32,000 nucleotides of DNA from Promethearchaeum syntrophicum (GTDB taxonomy: Archaea > Asgardarchaeota > Lokiarchaeia > Sigyniarchaeales > Promethearchaeaceae), in the NCBI RefSeq assembly GCF_008000775.2, contig NZ_CP042905.2, positions 2,160,001-2,192,000 on the forward strand. Reading direction: 5' to 3'. The translations under genes and the position numbers were made by a program. Positions 6,624 to 29,013 of this stretch are shown here, piece after piece; within the stretch, counting starts at the first letter, position 1; every line of letters starts with the position of its first letter. The notes below the pieces were generated by a model that did no database searches, was not told the DNA's origin, and saw only the letters and a program-made list of their open reading frames with translations.

Positions 6624-7151
6624 ATGGCAGACTACGTATTGAAAATATGTTTACTCGGTGATGGAAATGTCGGAAAAACCTCTATCGTTTACCGATATAT
6701 TGAGAACCGTTTTAGTCGTGATTTTAAATCTACTCTTGGTGTAAATTTATTAAAGAAAAAAGTAATCTTAACTGAAGGAGAAAACGCTGGAAAGATCTGT
6801 TCCATCCAAATCTGGGATCTTGGGGGTCAAAACGCCTACAGAAAATTGCGTAAACTCTATTTGGAGGGATCTCAGGGAGCTTTAGTCGTTTTCGATGTCA
6901 CATCTCAGTCTAGTTTTGATCACCTGGATGATTGGATTGAATCACTTATAGAAATCCGTGGGGACAAAGTTCCGATGATTTTAATTGGAAATAAAATTGA
7001 TTTAGAAGCTAATCGGGTTATAAACGAAATGCAAGTGCAGAAATATGCGGACAAATATAATATGCCCATTAAATTTACGAGTGCTGCAACCGGTGAGAAA
7101 GTCGAAACTGCATTTATAGAATTGATCCAAAATATTATAGAAACAATCTAA
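6624..7151 (+). CDS. Rab-like small GTPase (Ras superfamily)
   Basis: G1 GDGNVGKT, switch I KSTLGV, G3 WDLGGQ, G4 GNKIDL, G5 TSAATG. Collinear with eukaryotic Rab over the whole length. GGAG RBS 7 nt upstream of the ATG. Confidence 0.9.
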   Translation: MADYVLKICLLGDGNVGKTSIVYRYIENRFSRDFKSTLGVNLLKKKVILTEGENAGKICSIQIWDLGGQNAYRKLRKLYLEGSQGALVVFDVTSQSSFDHLDDWIESLIEIRGDKVPMILIGNKIDLEANRVINEMQVQKYADKYNMPIKFTSAATGEKVETAFIELIQNIIETI

Positions 7152-7344: not shown

Positions 7345-7899
7345 ATGGCAGAAAATGAGTTCGCAAGCGATTTTATCTTCAAAATTTGCGTGATTGGTGA
7401 CGGCGCTACTGGAAAAACTTCTCTCATTAAAAGATTCACACAAGGATCTTTCAATAAAGATTATATTAAAACTCTTGGTGCGCAGTTTTCAAAATTCGAA
7501 AAAATTATGGAGATTGACGGAAAAGCCATTCGGGCGCGTCTCTTTTTCTGGGATATTGCAGGCCAATCAGAGTTTCGCTTCATGAGGCCGACCTTCTATA
7601 ACGGCGCAAAAGCGACCATTGTTGTCTTTGATTTAACTCGAAAAGAGACGTATGATAATATCCGGACATGGATTGATGATATCACTCAATATTGTGGAAA
7701 ATTACCTACTGTATGCTTTGCTAATAAAAGCGATTTAATAAATGAAGCAGAATTTGATGATAGCGATATAAAAAACCTTTCTAAGGAATTAGAATTCATG
7801 GAATATTATTTGACTTCTGCAAAAACGGGTAAACACGTTCAAGATGCTTTTAATGCAATCATTGATATATTAGTGAAGAAAGCTTTAGCAGAAGGATAA
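7345..7899 (+). CDS. Rab/Ras-like small GTPase (second paralogue)
   Basis: G1 GDGATGKT, switch I IKTLGAQF, G3 WDIAGQ, G4 ANKSDL, G5 TSAKTG. Confidence 0.9.
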   Translation: MAENEFASDFIFKICVIGDGATGKTSLIKRFTQGSFNKDYIKTLGAQFSKFEKIMEIDGKAIRARLFFWDIAGQSEFRFMRPTFYNGAKATIVVFDLTRKETYDNIRTWIDDITQYCGKLPTVCFANKSDLINEAEFDDSDIKNLSKELEFMEYYLTSAKTGKHVQDAFNAIIDILVKKALAEG

Positions 7900-14564: not shown

Positions 14565-15305
14565 TCACGCCTTAAAAGGAGTTCCGGCATTTAATTCATA
14601 AATTTTACTTTCCTCTTCATTTTGGAGCTTGATTTCTTCAGGAGTTAATTTCCGAATTAATTCAGTTAATACTACCCGATTATAACTTATCAATATTCTT
14701 GGGATTAAGTCTTTAGCTAAATATGTTCCATCTGGGATCGATTCTTTTAGTCGATAAAGTTTGCGCTCTTTGATAATCTGACCAAGATATTCCTTATGAG
14801 TCTCTAAATAGCCATAAATATTATTTCCGTCGATTACCATCTCACGCTTATATCCATCTGGAAGACTTATTTTTTCGAGTAAAAGAACAATTTTTTCAAG
14901 GGTTAAGTTCTTTAAGAGTTTATCATCTTCAGCCGTTCCTTCATATGCTGGACCTGTCTGTTCTTCTTCAAAAATTTCTTCTTTTTCGAGACCTACCATT
15001 ATTTTAAATGGCAGAGTTTCATCATTTTGATCTACAGTATTTATTTTAATTGCTGGTCCAATCCTATCTCGGATAGAACTTGCCTTATTAGCTGCTATGA
15101 ACTTCATCCTGGTGGAAGCTTCGCTACCAGCCCATATAAATGATCGATAGGTTTCTGCATTGACAAAATAAAGGATAAGTTTTGGGTTAAGGATTTCGTA
15201 GAGTTTGACGCCTTCTTCGAGTTCCAGTTCTTCAAATTCGGCTTTTTCATCGTTTAATTGAAAAACTTGAATGGGATTTTTTTTTTCTTTGGTCATGGAA
15301 ATCAT
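14565..15305 (-). CDS. gelsolin/cofilin-like domain protein with uncharacterised C-terminal domain
   Basis: Residues ~10-105 (IQVFQL...LILYFVNAETYRSFIWAGSEASTRMKFIAANKASSIRDRIG...INTVDQNDETLPF) follow the gelsolin-repeat pattern (L..d.fil.....iy.W.G..as..ek..A...A......g.....v.eg.E...F). The C-terminal ~140 aa are unassigned. Confidence 0.6.
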   Translation of the reverse strand: MISMTKEKKNPIQVFQLNDEKAEFEELELEEGVKLYEILNPKLILYFVNAETYRSFIWAGSEASTRMKFIAANKASSIRDRIGPAIKINTVDQNDETLPFKIMVGLEKEEIFEEEQTGPAYEGTAEDDKLLKNLTLEKIVLLLEKISLPDGYKREMVIDGNNIYGYLETHKEYLGQIIKERKLYRLKESIPDGTYLAKDLIPRILISYNRVVLTELIRKLTPEEIKLQNEEESKIYELNAGTPFKA

Positions 15306-15390: not shown

Positions 15391-15499
15391 TGCGGGGAGA
15401 GGGATTTGAACTCTCGCGGCTCTACGCACTGGATTTCTCATCATCTTGATAAGATTGATTCTGAGTCCAGCATCGTGGACCAGACTTGATTATCCCCGC
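15391..15499 (-). tRNA. tRNA-Leu(CAG), type II (long variable arm), with ~25-nt intron 3' of anticodon position 37
   Basis: Hand fold of the minus strand. The acceptor GCGGGGA/TCCCCGC gives 7 bp, with discriminator A. The D stem is 3 bp (ATC/GAT). The anticodon stem CTGGA/TCCAG flanks the loop CTCAGAA, interrupted at about 15435..15459. The variable arm is 13 nt. The T arm is GAGAG-TTCAAAT-CCCTC with one A-C mismatch. No CCA is encoded. Confidence 0.85.
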
Positions 15500-23052: not shown

Positions 23053-25215
23053 TTATATAAGCCTATTCCCGCATTCTGTACAAAATAATGACTTTCCATC
23101 TGTAATTGGTGCACCACAATTGGTACAAAACTTGAATTTTGCTTTTTGATTTGAAAAATTATCGAATTCATCAAAAATGAAAGAATTGGAGGAACTTGAT
23201 GTTTCTGGTGGGCTATTATCACTCCCAAAAGTTCCTATTGAAGGATTTGTGCCATATATTTGAAAACTACTTGGGGAGTCTCGAATTGGAACTCTCGGCT
23301 TTGGTTTATAGAATTTTTTCCTCCAGATTATAGCAGAAATTGATAAAAATCCAATAACTCCAAGAGTAATAGAAATTCCCCGCATCATAGGATTGCTTAT
23401 CGATTTCAAAGGATTTGTATTTCTGTCGATTTCCTCTTTATCGGTATATTGATCATCATCTGTATCCATATCTAATGGGTCCGTTCCATAAGAAAATTCT
23501 TCAGAATTGATAAGTCCATCACCATCAGGATCGTCAGTTGCATCATCAACTAGCGGATTTGTTCCTTTAAAATATTCCCAACCGTCAGGCATTCCGTCAT
23601 AATCCGTATCTAAAGATAAAGAATCCGTCCCAATTTGAAGCTCAATATCATCGGATAACTCATCATTATCCCAATCTGAATCCCAGAGATTAAAACCAAT
23701 TTCAAATTCATAAGCATCAGAAAGTGAATCACCGTCAAAATCACCACTATAAGATAATCCTAAAGGAGTTAATTCTATGGATTCATTATCAATTTCTGAA
23801 AAACCATTATTAGTTTGAATTGCTTTAAAAGTAATACCCGAAATATCATGACCCGTTAAACTTGAAGCAAATAATTTTTGTTGCCAACCAGCGCTGTTTT
23901 GAATGTTTTCCTCTATTTCGGATCTCACTATTGTTTGTTCTGTAAAATCATAATATACTAATATTAATTTTCCTACTCCAAGACCGCTAAGAGCAAATTC
24001 AATTTGTACTTGGTCATTTCCAGATGGAATAACCGAATTTATCTTCCCATTCGGTTCAAGTATTAATTCACCATCAATTCCATCATATTCCTCAGGATGA
24101 TGAGTAAATCCTAAATAAGTTGACCGATCGACTGTAGAATTATAAATCGCTTCAAAATTTTCTTCATATGATATCACTCCATCATTATTAATATCTGAAT
24201 TATTATCCCACGAATTCAAAAAACTATAAGAAAATACTCCATTTTCACGATACGGATCTTCCAATGAGTATTCTGAACTATTACTTGCTGATATTACATA
24301 TCTATCCGTTTGAGCAAAATCTCGAGCAACGCCTCCACTATGGCAAGAATCCAACAGTGTAACGACCTGACCAGGAACTTCATTAAAATAAGAATTTAGC
24401 GTAGATCCATTTAACCCTGAGTCCAATCCATCATGTGTATTTATGCAATATGAATCTTCCCAGTAACCTACTTCAACTAAATCGATTTCAAATCCCCACT
24501 CGGTTATTGAATAATCAGTGTACAAATTAACATAGATGTCATCACAAGGTATCCAACCAGACCATAAATCGGTATAATCATTATCATATAAAACATAAGC
24601 AGGCCATCTGTCATCATTATCTCCAATATAAATTTCATCAATTTCATCTTCAAGTTCAATTTTTGTAAAGTGAACCCTCATTAGTTCTGCCCCTGGATGA
24701 GAATAATGCCAATAATCATCCATATTATTAGAATATGGATGATTGCTTGCTACATTCCAGCTATATTGAATTGAAGATATTTCTTGAGATCCATGCCCTG
24801 AATAAGAAAAGAATAACACATCATTTTCATTCATCACATCGGAAAAATTGCTAATAGCATAAGAAATATCAGGGATAGTCACCTCAGAATCTATTAATTT
24901 AACGATATTTGAATCAGGTATATGGTAGTTATCTAGGATAAAGTTATATATCTCTTCAGCATCATCATCACAATAGCTTAAATCATTAATAGACCCGGGA
25001 TAATCACTCACTCCACAAATAATTGCATAACCTTCTCTTGGATCTTCGATTGATGAAGATTTTACCTCACCTTCAAATAAATTGTTTCCCTTAAGTTTCT
25101 CACTAATTGTTAAATTACTTTGAATAAATAAAAAGGGAGAGATAAAATTTAATGCTAATATTGAAATAAGAACTATTTCTCTTACAGAAACTTTAGTTTT
25201 ACTCATTTTTATCAT
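23053..25215 (-). CDS. membrane-anchored caspase-fold (peptidase C14-like) protein with CUB-like insertion, beta-sandwich region, thrombospondin-type-3-like Ca-binding repeats, TM helix and C-terminal zinc ribbon
   Basis: N-terminal signal/anchor. YAIICGVSDYPG...DDDAEE...VLFFSYSGHG (catalytic His 141) and VVTLLDSCHSGG (catalytic Cys 291). Five DxDxDGxxDxxE-like repeats (aa ~490-600). TM helix ISITLGVIGFLSISAIIW. CTNC-x12-CTEC zinc ribbon at the C-terminus. An alternative start exists at 25206. Confidence 0.8.
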   Translation of the reverse strand: MIKMSKTKVSVREIVLISILALNFISPFLFIQSNLTISEKLKGNNLFEGEVKSSSIEDPREGYAIICGVSDYPGSINDLSYCDDDAEEIYNFILDNYHIPDSNIVKLIDSEVTIPDISYAISNFSDVMNENDVLFFSYSGHGSQEISSIQYSWNVASNHPYSNNMDDYWHYSHPGAELMRVHFTKIELEDEIDEIYIGDNDDRWPAYVLYDNDYTDLWSGWIPCDDIYVNLYTDYSITEWGFEIDLVEVGYWEDSYCINTHDGLDSGLNGSTLNSYFNEVPGQVVTLLDSCHSGGVARDFAQTDRYVISASNSSEYSLEDPYRENGVFSYSFLNSWDNNSDINNDGVISYEENFEAIYNSTVDRSTYLGFTHHPEEYDGIDGELILEPNGKINSVIPSGNDQVQIEFALSGLGVGKLILVYYDFTEQTIVRSEIEENIQNSAGWQQKLFASSLTGHDISGITFKAIQTNNGFSEIDNESIELTPLGLSYSGDFDGDSLSDAYEFEIGFNLWDSDWDNDELSDDIELQIGTDSLSLDTDYDGMPDGWEYFKGTNPLVDDATDDPDGDGLINSEEFSYGTDPLDMDTDDDQYTDKEEIDRNTNPLKSISNPMMRGISITLGVIGFLSISAIIWRKKFYKPKPRVPIRDSPSSFQIYGTNPSIGTFGSDNSPPETSSSSNSFIFDEFDNFSNQKAKFKFCTNCGAPITDGKSLFCTECGNRLI

Positions 25216-27846: not shown

Positions 27847-29013
27847 ATGATGGAAGAAAATCTTGAAAATTGGATAATTTTATTAGATTGCACAAAATCC
27901 ATGAATAGAGAAGATTTTCCTCCAAATAGATTCCAAACTGCATTAAGTGGAATCAAAATCTTTATTGAAGAAAAATCTAAGGCATTAAAGAAAGTTAGAA
28001 TATCCATAATCACATTTAATAAAAAAATTTCAGTTGTTTCTGAGTTGACTGATGATGTTGATTCAACCATTGAATTAATTTCAAATAAAAAATTTAAAAA
28101 AATGAATCTCTCATCAGGTTCAATAAATATGTTGGATAATGCATTAAATGAAGCATTAGAGATTCTTGGTCAACAAATTCAAAATATTTCTGGATTTTAT
28201 AATTGTATATTGTTAATTTCTGATACGGAAGATCTTAATATTTCGGAAAAAACCCAAAAAAAAATCAAAGGATTACAAATTTCGATAAATATTATAACAT
28301 TTTCACTTGAGAAAAATAACGCTAATATGTATTTTCCATTGAAAGCTCAACATTTTACTACTAAACAAGATCTTTTGAATGGAATGAAGGAACTTGCCTT
28401 ATTAAAAAAAAAAGAAAAAAATAATGCTCAACATTTTTCAGAAATAATGTTAGAACATGGAAAAAAAACTCGCGATTTCATGGAAGAAATTGCTTTAAAA
28501 TTGAGATATCCAACACTTGATGAATTAATCAAATTTAATAAGAAATCAAGAAAAATCAATTGCCAAATATGTTTCAGCAAAATTTCCCCCATTAAAAAAT
28601 ATTCACTTTATAAAACTGGAAGATTATGCCCCCATTGTGGGACGCCAATGCACCTTCATTGTGCGGGAACATGGGCTCTTAAATCATCAGAACACAAAGG
28701 TTTATTCAGATGCCCATATTGTTATACTCTTCTAAAAATTCCGGGAGCAATTTTAAATGGTCTTAATAAAAAAAGCAATAAAAAAGAAGGATCAGAATCT
28801 AAAAAACAATTAGTTAAAATGATTGTTATTGGACCTGAAAAACTTAAACAGAAATATTCTGATTGCTTGTATTGTTTTAAACCAATAAAAAATGTTTCAT
28901 TTCAGAAAACTTTTCAATGCAGTAATTGTAAAGCATATTTTCATAAAAAATGCCTGGAAGAGATGTATAAATTAGATAAAAAATGTTTAAATTGCAATGG
29001 AAATATTGTTTAG
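27847..29013 (+). CDS. von Willebrand factor A (vWA) domain protein with two C-terminal C4HC3 RING/PHD-type zinc fingers
   Basis: N-terminal WIILLDCTKSMNREDFPPNRFQ (a MIDAS-like DxTxS; it resembles the Rpn10 vWA segment IDNSEWMRNGDY.PSRFQ) and LLISDTED. Finger 1 spans aa 239-292: C-x2-C-x18-C-x2-C-x4-H-x2-C-x16-C-x2-C. Finger 2 spans aa 340-383: C-x2-C-x14-C-x2-C-x4-H-x2-C-x10-C-x2-C. Confidence 0.75.
   Translation: MMEENLENWIILLDCTKSMNREDFPPNRFQTALSGIKIFIEEKSKALKKVRISIITFNKKISVVSELTDDVDSTIELISNKKFKKMNLSSGSINMLDNALNEALEILGQQIQNISGFYNCILLISDTEDLNISEKTQKKIKGLQISINIITFSLEKNNANMYFPLKAQHFTTKQDLLNGMKELALLKKKEKNNAQHFSEIMLEHGKKTRDFMEEIALKLRYPTLDELIKFNKKSRKINCQICFSKISPIKKYSLYKTGRLCPHCGTPMHLHCAGTWALKSSEHKGLFRCPYCYTLLKIPGAILNGLNKKSNKKEGSESKKQLVKMIVIGPEKLKQKYSDCLYCFKPIKNVSFQKTFQCSNCKAYFHKKCLEEMYKLDKKCLNCNGNIV

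Follow-up and report, generated by a model that had tools for sequence, protein, structure and literature searches.

The window analysed here is a 32,000-nucleotide stretch of the Promethearchaeum syntrophicum genome (contig NZ_CP042905.2, positions 2,160,001 to 2,192,000). An open reading frame (ORF) of 246 codons lies on its minus strand at 14565..15305, and the translation contains all the peptides quoted in a preliminary description of this DNA. The encoded protein joins an N-terminal gelsolin-fold domain, through a short linker, to a domain of another kind (X) and a C-terminal tail. The gene is a member of the best-conserved gelsolin-domain family of Lokiarchaeia. On the most likely reading, for which we consider the chances evenly balanced, this short-linker Asgard gelsolin + X protein, of the type published as 1DGelX, would bind and regulate actin independently of calcium through its gelsolin domain, with X as a second contact. 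The features of the gene, with the evidence for each, are the following.

14565..15305, minus strand: complete coding sequence of the short-linker gelsolin + domain X protein (246 codons, stop at 14565-14567; ORF list, homologs, and the ratio of nonsynonymous to synonymous substitution rates, dN/dS)
14991..15272, minus strand: gelsolin-fold domain, residues 12-105 (profile against PDB sequences, AlphaFold2, Foldseek, invariant columns)
15060..15113, minus strand: long helix of the gelsolin domain, residues 65-82, TRMKFIAANKASSIRDRI (HMMER alignments to 7whg, conservation)
14934..14990, minus strand: acidic, predicted disordered linker, residues 106-124 (predicted local distance difference test score, pLDDT; conservation; isoelectric point, pI)
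14937-14960, minus strand: conserved QTGPAYEG motif, residues 116-123 (G118, P119 and Y121 at least 90% conserved)
14643..14933, minus strand: domain X, residues 125-221 (AlphaFold2 of the full-length protein and of X alone, conservation over 80 X domains)
14568..14642, minus strand: acidic helical C-terminal tail, residues 222-246, with an xPF motif at its end (TPFKA) (AlphaFold2, alignment)

The gene is genuine and under strong purifying selection. With a G+C content of about 32% in the window, stops make up about 7.6% of random codons, and the calculated chance of an open frame of 246 codons is about 3e-9. Database homologs at E<=1e-3 number 411 and are about 225-260 residues long throughout; all of them are unannotated ('hypothetical'), and a precomputed Pfam domain is present in 0 of the 411. 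Compared with the three closest orthologs, which come from Promethearchaeum sp. metagenome-assembled genomes (MAGs) and are 85-86% identical, dN/dS is 0.06-0.07.

The N-terminal domain is a genuine gelsolin-fold homolog that carries the gelsolin sequence signature. When the single sequence was compared with PDB sequences by phmmer, the top match was the Lokiarchaeota 2DGel (7whg), with an E value of 0.001. A family profile (A1), obtained from an alignment of 39 family members, matched 7whg at 4.3e-8, Thor ProGel (7c2f) at 4.1e-7, villin at 6e-7 and Thor 2DGel3 at 1e-6, with weaker villin and 2DGel3 matches to 1e-5; the matches always cover residues ~28-110. Among Pfam families, only PF00626 is approached by several members (3 of 39), the best E value of 2.7e-4 lying below its cutoff. 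AlphaFold2 was run on the family alignment and gave a mean pLDDT of 80 for the full-length protein. The gelsolin-domain model includes strands at residues 13-18, 23-27, 44-49, 54-59 and 87-92, the long helix at 65-82 and a short helix at 98-104. Its best Foldseek match in the PDB is 7c2f_B (Thor ProGel), with a target-normalised template modelling (TM) score of 0.85 and a root-mean-square deviation of 2.5 A. There are 55 matches at E<=1e-3, and the 50 listed are all gelsolin-family chains, human gelsolin G1/G3, adseverin, villin, fragmin and CapG appearing at E 1e-5 to 1e-4. The gelsolin pattern that had been proposed for residues ~10-105 is therefore borne out by profile matches to 2DGel and ProGel, by the AlphaFold2 model and by Foldseek, all of which agree; the profile matches to gelsolins are significant, and the model has a five-stranded sheet between the long and the short helix. 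W58 and G60, which make up the W-x-G element, are invariant in the family alignment. The family consensus reads FVD...WxG, the window protein having N49 at the D position; the DWG motif (D...WxG) is a hallmark of ProGel and 2DGel, its cofilin counterpart being 'WP' (PMC7444086). Residues R66, K68, F69, A72, R79 and D80 of the long helix are invariant in the family.

The sequence of the long helix bears on calcium binding. In the HMMER alignment to 7whg, the 'VDE' at the start of the long helix is aligned with T65-R66-M67 and the 'LDQ' near its end with I78-R79-D80, so that M67 stands at the E of 'VDE' and R79 at the D of 'LDQ': the acidic helix ligands are not kept. Across the family alignment R66 and R79 do not vary, and M67 hardly does. 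We take the helix positions at M67 and R79 to be calcium ligands in Loki 2DGel; the same positions are presumably Glu97 (type II site) and Asp109 (type I site, shared with actin Glu167) of human gelsolin G1. Because the residues aligned to these acidic 2DGel residues are M67 and R79, the window protein is predicted to act independently of calcium. One may speculate that Arg79, at the type-I position, forms a direct pair with the glutamate through which actin normally takes part in binding the type-I calcium. The predicted calcium independence matches ProGel, which has no calcium sites, and the measurements made on Thor 1DGelX (KXH72031.1), for which calcium-independent severing, nucleation and sequestering were reported, with a Kd of 7.7 uM for rabbit actin (Akil et al., 2020; PMC7444086).

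The remainder of the protein had been described as a C-terminal domain of ~140 residues. This half is indeed non-gelsolin, but it is not a single domain, as AlphaFold2 and the alignment divide it into linker (106-124), X (125-221) and tail (222-246). The linker has a pI of ~4, and pLDDT falls below 50 at residues 112-120. Its QTGPAYEG sequence is a candidate short linear motif, and a similar 'GPIYTG' is found in the divergent relative P0152. The model of X has helices at 125-132 and 136-145 and strands at 152-159, 162-173, 176-185, 201-207 and 210-219. When modelled alone, X reached a pLDDT of 82.7 and a predicted TM score (pTM) of 0.69, with the same structure as in the full-length run; it is confidently predicted to be a separately folding basic alpha/beta module of ~97 residues. 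X is basic (pI 8.8), the remainder of the protein acidic. The pTM of the full-length model is 0.44, which indicates that the gelsolin domain and X would have no fixed mutual orientation. Across 80 diverse X domains, P149, G151, R154, E155, G175, G193, R203 and E215 are invariant or nearly so. The tail is modelled as a helix (222-240) with pLDDT falling along it. Tail and PF motif occur only in the subclade of the window protein, the broad X alignment stopping at E-[FL]-L-K-K. The C-terminal xPF (last five residues, 14568-14582; variants TPFKA, APFTA and NPFSE) is a further candidate short linear motif.

An exhaustive X-profile search over 1.84 billion cluster representatives found X in 101 of them. 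A gelsolin domain was also found in 51 of the 64 X representatives of at least 200 residues, N-terminal to X in all but one. Many of the X-only representatives are proteins of ~210-230 residues with X near the C-terminus; they could be truncated gene calls, or their gelsolin domain could be too diverged for detection. X is thus confined almost entirely to a position C-terminal to gelsolin domains. Unusual architectures are those of P0198 (434 residues; gelsolin + X + X), P0209 (255 residues; X before the gelsolin domain) and P0188 (444 residues; an N-terminal X followed by ~340 residues without a Pfam match), and no informative partner domain was found in these proteins.

Linker lengths are bimodal: 7-39 residues in 13 representatives, which is the type of the window protein, and 65-182 residues, rich in P, E and S, in 37 others. 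Gel-X proteins thus appear to comprise a short-linker group, to which the window gene belongs, and a long-linker paralog group, with members in the closed genome of Odinarchaeum yellowstonii LCB_4 (WEU39881.1), in Jordarchaeum and among Lokiarchaeia proteins. A scan of GTDB species representatives with the full-length alignment found a relative of the short family in 132 genomes; in each of the best 80 of these 132, identity is 48% or more along almost the entire protein. Reliably named carriers are Candidatus (Ca.) Lokiarchaeum ossiferum B35 (70% identity to the window protein), Ca. Harpocratesius repetitus (59%) and Promethearchaeum sp. Some MAGs with the short family are labelled Thor-, Hod-, Odin- or Hermodarchaeota. 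Proteins labelled 'Odin-', 'Thor-' and 'Hod-' are ~70% identical to Lokiarchaeota-labelled ones (loci L024, L026, L042, L073 and L075-L077), and one cluster at >=90% identity (that of the protein of L076:4356-5078) mixes Thorarchaeota and Hodarchaeota labels. The lineage labels of this MAG series look unreliable; because they conflict within one cluster, we claim the short-linker family for Lokiarchaeia-type genomes only. The broader Asgard range belongs to the long-linker paralogs only, via Odinarchaeum LCB_4.

The gelsolin + X architecture is already described in Asgard archaea under the name '1DGelX', and the assignment of the window protein to this type in the preliminary description stands: one N-terminal gelsolin domain is followed by a non-gelsolin domain (AlphaFold2 boundaries; hhalign probability of Gel against X 0.2%). 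What is new here is the short-linker, highly conserved paralog. By sequence similarity, its X is homologous to the C-terminal domain of 100 other cluster representatives, nearly all of which have a gelsolin domain at the N-terminus, that of Odinarchaeum LCB_4 included. The published 1DGelX counts (two in MK-D1, three in GC14_75) fit a short/long paralogy. Over ~88 residues, identity to Thor ProGel is 34-35% for the long-linker proteins P0184 and P0337/8 and 27-33% for the short family; for 1DGelX and ProGel, 35% identity was reported (PMC7444086). B35_GelX (UYP44381.1), of ~40 kDa, consists of GH, an 'extensive linker' and X, and groups with Thor_GelX in a published phylogeny (bioRxiv 10.1101/2025.11.30.690169). 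Considering size, description, published phylogeny and the pattern of ProGel identity, Thor 1DGelX and B35_GelX probably belong to the long-linker group. The window protein is then probably a short-linker paralog of the characterised proteins, to which published biochemistry transfers only by paralogy.

The probable ortholog in L. ossiferum, an organism with eight gelsolin-like genes, is UYP48730.1 (NEF87_005015; UniRef name 'Gelsolin-like domain-containing protein'). The 2025 motility preprint names five gelsolin-homology proteins, and this one is not included. Four concordant facts make it the probable GNAMCCOK_05055 of the published tables: its accession offset predicts GNAMCCOK_05053-05056; the listed mass of GNAMCCOK_05055 is 28.77 kDa and that computed for UYP48730.1 is 28.79; the gene two ORFs upstream encodes 456 residues of 49.75 kDa, GNAMCCOK_05052 being listed at 49.72; and a tRNA gene between this upstream gene and UYP48730.1 accounts for the number 05054. 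GNAMCCOK_05055 was detected in every proteome sample, at a mean log2 intensity of 17.7 (Lokiactin 21.7, B35_GelX 18.6).

How could such a protein work? In the mechanism that we propose, the gelsolin domain would bind and regulate actin, and docking would need no calcium, because the positions aligned to acidic Loki 2DGel residues are Met67 and the invariant Arg79. X would add a second contact, to the filament side, to a second copy of the protein or to another partner or surface, and the protein, otherwise a weak binder of monomers, would thereby become active on filaments. The part played by X is the least secure element of this proposal. Several observations argue for this mechanism, among them the gelsolin homology and fold of the N-terminal domain and its conserved WxG hallmark. 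B35_GelX, built of GH, linker and X, co-precipitates with Lokiactin (log2 2.28). The invariant long-helix surface and the low dN/dS would fit a conserved partner such as actin, and the calcium-site substitutions match the calcium-independent activity of Thor 1DGelX. X is paired near-exclusively with gelsolin domains, and the long-linker paralog is found in a cytoskeletal context. In four of seven distinct contexts, Odin LCB_4 included, a Roadblock/LC7-like gene (128-131 residues) comes next to the long-linker gene on the same strand, with a gap of 3-138 bp (L081:5864-6259, L084:5818-6207, L087:1960-2346 and L088:5877-6269). At L084, an actin gene (PF00022) follows 1.9 kb downstream, beyond the Roadblock/LC7 gene. 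At L081, a 557-residue Arf/Ras/Roc GTPase is encoded two genes upstream. The gelsolin-X/Roadblock pair may be a conserved module linking small-GTPase signalling to actin.

Other observations weigh against an actin regulator. In a Lokiactin co-immunoprecipitation (co-IP), GNAMCCOK_05055 was equal in the Lokiactin precipitate and the IgG control (log2 -0.017, p 0.95, 8 peptides, 38% coverage), whereas five other gelsolin-homology proteins were enriched (log2 2.1-4.0; 2DGel1 3.97, Gel2 2.58, GelX 2.28, Gel1 2.08). This null result, obtained under a single condition with a single antibody, weighs most heavily against a stable association with actin. The characterised Thor 1DGelX is probably a paralog rather than an ortholog of the window protein. 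Basic residues of the long helix stand where gelsolins that bind actin have acidic ones, and partner specificity could therefore differ. By analogy with Sec23/24, whose gelsolin fold is not established as an actin binder (PMC7444086), a gelsolin fold need not be an actin-binding one. As the preliminary description had noted, there is no actin or profilin gene in the window (all ORFs of at least 90 residues were scanned against Pfam), and the surroundings of the short-linker gene, both in the window and in the 80 related loci on which all context counts for this gene are based, are free of genes for actin, profilin or other cytoskeletal proteins.

The co-IP null and the missing cytoskeletal context make a non-actin role a serious rival. 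We regard it as possible, if somewhat unlikely, that the gelsolin fold has been repurposed, so that the short-linker subfamily is not a Lokiactin filament regulator and its basic helix and X bind another conserved partner or surface. Candidates are a divergent actin-related protein, a membrane or lipid, or an unrelated protein, and the gelsolin-like domain of Sec23/24 provides the precedent. The probable ortholog is expressed and yet null in the co-IP, though a lone experiment of this kind is compatible with transient or monomer-only binding. A precomputed Pfam Gelsolin match is found in no short-family member, charge is reversed at the two helix positions aligned to acidic 2DGel residues, and the high pI of X (8.8) points the same way; the WxG hallmark and the overall fold, however, are intact, and X is common to paralogs that co-precipitate with Lokiactin or sever actin. 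In 51 of the 80 loci, in the larger sister clade, the short-linker gene is followed downstream on the same strand, after 110-300 bp, by a gene for a VTT/DedA-type membrane protein (PF09335; within L010-L080; examples are L066:4970-5719, L090:7027-7677 and L091:6851-7561). This adjacency could reflect shared descent or a membrane link; it is limited to one clade, the gaps are of 110-300 bp, and the window gene has no such neighbour. When expressed in human cells as a fusion with green fluorescent protein, Thor 1DGelX was seen at regions resembling endoplasmic reticulum and nuclear envelope, with weak filament association (PMC7444086), an observation that also counts in favour of this rival.

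A self-association role of X is not exclusive of the actin-regulator reading but a variant of it: a dimer with two gelsolin domains would mimic the two-domain gelsolins. Such a dimer, which we judge unlikely, would explain the bundling-then-severing behaviour of Thor 1DGelX, which bundles short filament fragments before severing them (PMC7444086), as this requires at least two actin-binding sites per particle. The modelled X exposes a beta-sheet with long hairpins that might pair edge to edge, and one representative (P0198) has two tandem X domains. Against this, the residues of X that are invariant throughout (R154, E155, R203, E215, G193) are charged or Gly/Pro and form no obvious hydrophobic dimer face, and in the Thor study preference was given to binding along the side of the filament (PMC7444086).

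A broader proposition, which we hold to be rather improbable, is that X is a previously unrecognised fold and the characteristic module of a pan-Asgard family, always coupled to a calcium-independent gelsolin domain, and that its short-linker form targets a membrane, a lipid or another non-actin partner instead of Lokiactin filaments. If true, the non-actin reading would mean a second, non-cytoskeletal use of the gelsolin fold predating eukaryotes.

X has no detectable relative outside gelsolin-X proteins. A Pfam search with 28 X sequences gave nothing above noise. Compared with PDB sequences, an X profile (A2) had zero matches at E<=10, and the sole match of a more diverse one (A3), at 0.58, was to an unrelated repressor. 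The best Foldseek match of the X model in the PDB had an E value of 0.08 and a TM score of ~0.2, with no Sm, gelsolin or Roadblock structure, and a search of X in BFVD returned zero matches. The statement of the preliminary description that the C-terminal half holds no recognisable motif is thus upheld, credible matches in Pfam, NCBIfam, PDB sequences and Foldseek being zero. It is highly improbable that X is a diverged version of a known fold, be it a second gelsolin repeat (a cryptic 2DGel), an Sm-like barrel or a Roadblock-like domain. For the Sm-like barrel speak a phmmer match to S. pombe LSm4 (E 0.024, residues 94-183) and a helix-then-five-strands topology that is superficially Sm-like; but the alignment places the Sm strands on the disordered linker and a helix, and the match is gone with profiles A2 and A3. 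We rejected it as a chance match, since neither the two profiles nor Foldseek reproduce it and its register contradicts the predicted structure. A Roadblock-like X, suggested by the Roadblock gene that adjoins the long-linker paralogs, was ruled out by an hhalign probability of 0.2% (X, A3, against Roadblock, A4). A second gelsolin repeat was ruled out by the equally low probability (0.2%) of Gel against X and by the Foldseek result without gelsolin; moreover, the translated sequence has no LKDV/LRRV WH2-like motif. We also rejected a WH2-like reading of 'LLKNLTLEKI' in the linker and first helices, whose spacing misfits WH2 and which is modelled as packed X helices, again without LKDV/LRRV. 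The chance that the ORF itself is a spurious or decaying frame is practically nil: zero matches in single-sequence Pfam and NCBIfam searches of the 246-residue protein leave it without a curated family, but this reading is already refuted by more than 400 full-length homologs, the dN/dS of 0.06-0.07, confident fold predictions and the mass-spectrometric detection, in every proteome sample, of the probable ortholog from L. ossiferum.

The neighbours of the gene in the window are an inositol-monophosphatase-family gene and CDC48 on one side, and a tRNA and a beta-eliminating lyase on the other. This arrangement is kept in L. ossiferum and Harpocratesius, but in 7-8 of the 80 loci only, and a functional link to the inositol-monophosphatase-family and CDC48 genes was rejected because the synteny is limited to the closest clade. 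CDC48 and a pyruvate:ferredoxin oxidoreductase gene, also in the neighbourhood, share 91-94% identity with their counterparts in the closest Promethearchaeum sp. MAGs. At four of the 80 loci, a stand-alone ProGel-like gene (121-128 residues) lies directly upstream of the gelsolin-X gene (L010:3378-3740, L011:3363-3743, L026:3394-3777 and L076:3929-4309); it bears the family-specific 'TTRMKF' helix, which suggests a tandem duplication of the gelsolin domain.

The tRNA lies at 15391-15499 (minus strand), 86 bp upstream of the start of the gelsolin-X gene. It is of class II, contains an intron and reads as tRNA-Leu(CAG); Rfam scores it at 39.9 bits (E 3e-7), the insertion of 27 nt coming immediately behind the anticodon loop position, and ARAGORN made zero tRNA calls over the whole window. 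The orthologous tRNAs upstream of the gelsolin-X gene have no intron (L. ossiferum, L004:3748-3832, 52 bits; a Promethearchaeum MAG, L001:3795-3878). An Rfam search in gathering mode over three loci (26 kb) had missed the 52-bit L004 tRNA, which was found by a focused 400-base E-value search; negative tRNA results in fast-filter mode should be treated with care. Elsewhere in the window, two adjacent genes for Ras-family small GTPases (6624-7151 and 7345-7899, plus strand; PF00071, E 1e-46 and 7e-41), typical Asgard eukaryotic-signature proteins, are followed by a thioredoxin-like gene and a V4R-domain gene. The 388-residue protein encoded at 27847-29013 (plus strand) has a VWA domain and weak RING-finger and C1-like zinc-finger matches, and the 720-residue protein encoded at 23053-25215 (minus strand) has a caspase-like Peptidase_C14 domain, bacterial TSP3 repeats and a C-terminal zinc ribbon.

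Asgard archaea have been described as relying mainly on gelsolin-domain proteins and profilins to regulate actin (bioRxiv 10.1101/2025.11.30.690169), and such regulators are central to arguments on how a dynamic cytoskeleton arose before eukaryotes. The short-linker family has been overlooked: from the gelsolin-homology proteins that the recent Lokiactin interactome discusses, its probable L. ossiferum ortholog is missing. Short- and long-linker groups have different genomic partners and possibly differ in their association with actin. The folded X and the two groups leave the known picture fundamentally unchanged; together they delimit clean constructs and mutants for the experiments that failed with the Thor protein.

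Among known systems, Sec23 and Sec24 resemble the window protein in having a gelsolin-like domain within a protein that contains other modules; no specific sequence or structure affinity to them was seen, and there is no COPII context within the window. The repeats of eukaryotic gelsolin, villin and CapG (PF00626) share the fold of the window gelsolin domain. Eukaryotic gelsolin-family proteins have three to six repeats and are calcium-regulated. The first domain of Asgard 2DGel (7whg, 7whf, 7c2g, 7c2h), from the same lineage, is the nearest sequence relative among solved structures (4e-8); 2DGel has, in addition, a second gelsolin repeat, a WH2-like LKDV/LRRV motif and calcium-binding acidic residues, none of which is found in the window protein. 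The closest structural match of the gelsolin domain is Thor ProGel (PDB 7c2f). WxG is common to both and both are without calcium sites, but ProGel is a gelsolin domain alone, of ~94 residues, with a sequence identity of ~15-30% to the window protein; it binds actin very weakly (Kd ~337 uM; PMC7444086).

The comparison with Thor 1DGelX and B35_GelX is made by description. They are, like the window protein, Asgard-specific and composed of an N-terminal gelsolin domain and a non-gelsolin domain X, and the window X appears homologous to that of the long-linker Gel-X family, which is most likely their home. Calcium independence is experimental for Thor 1DGelX and predicted from sequence for the window protein. 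The linker is of ~20 residues in the window protein versus 65-182 in the long-linker group, and QTGPAYEG is specific to the window family. The short-linker family is also far more conserved (at least 50% identity across it) than the group of Thor 1DGelX and B35_GelX, and B35_GelX is enriched in the Lokiactin co-IP whereas the probable L. ossiferum ortholog of the window protein is not. Finally, X of 1DGelX was described as a coiled coil predicted by I-TASSER, its crystallisation and domain expression having failed (PMC7444086), or as 'disordered' on the basis of AF3 (bioRxiv 10.1101/2025.11.30.690169). In contrast, X of the window protein is predicted to be a compact alpha/beta domain with a small invariant set of Arg, Glu, Gly and Pro residues, a fold that, assuming that the same region is meant, would refine both published descriptions.

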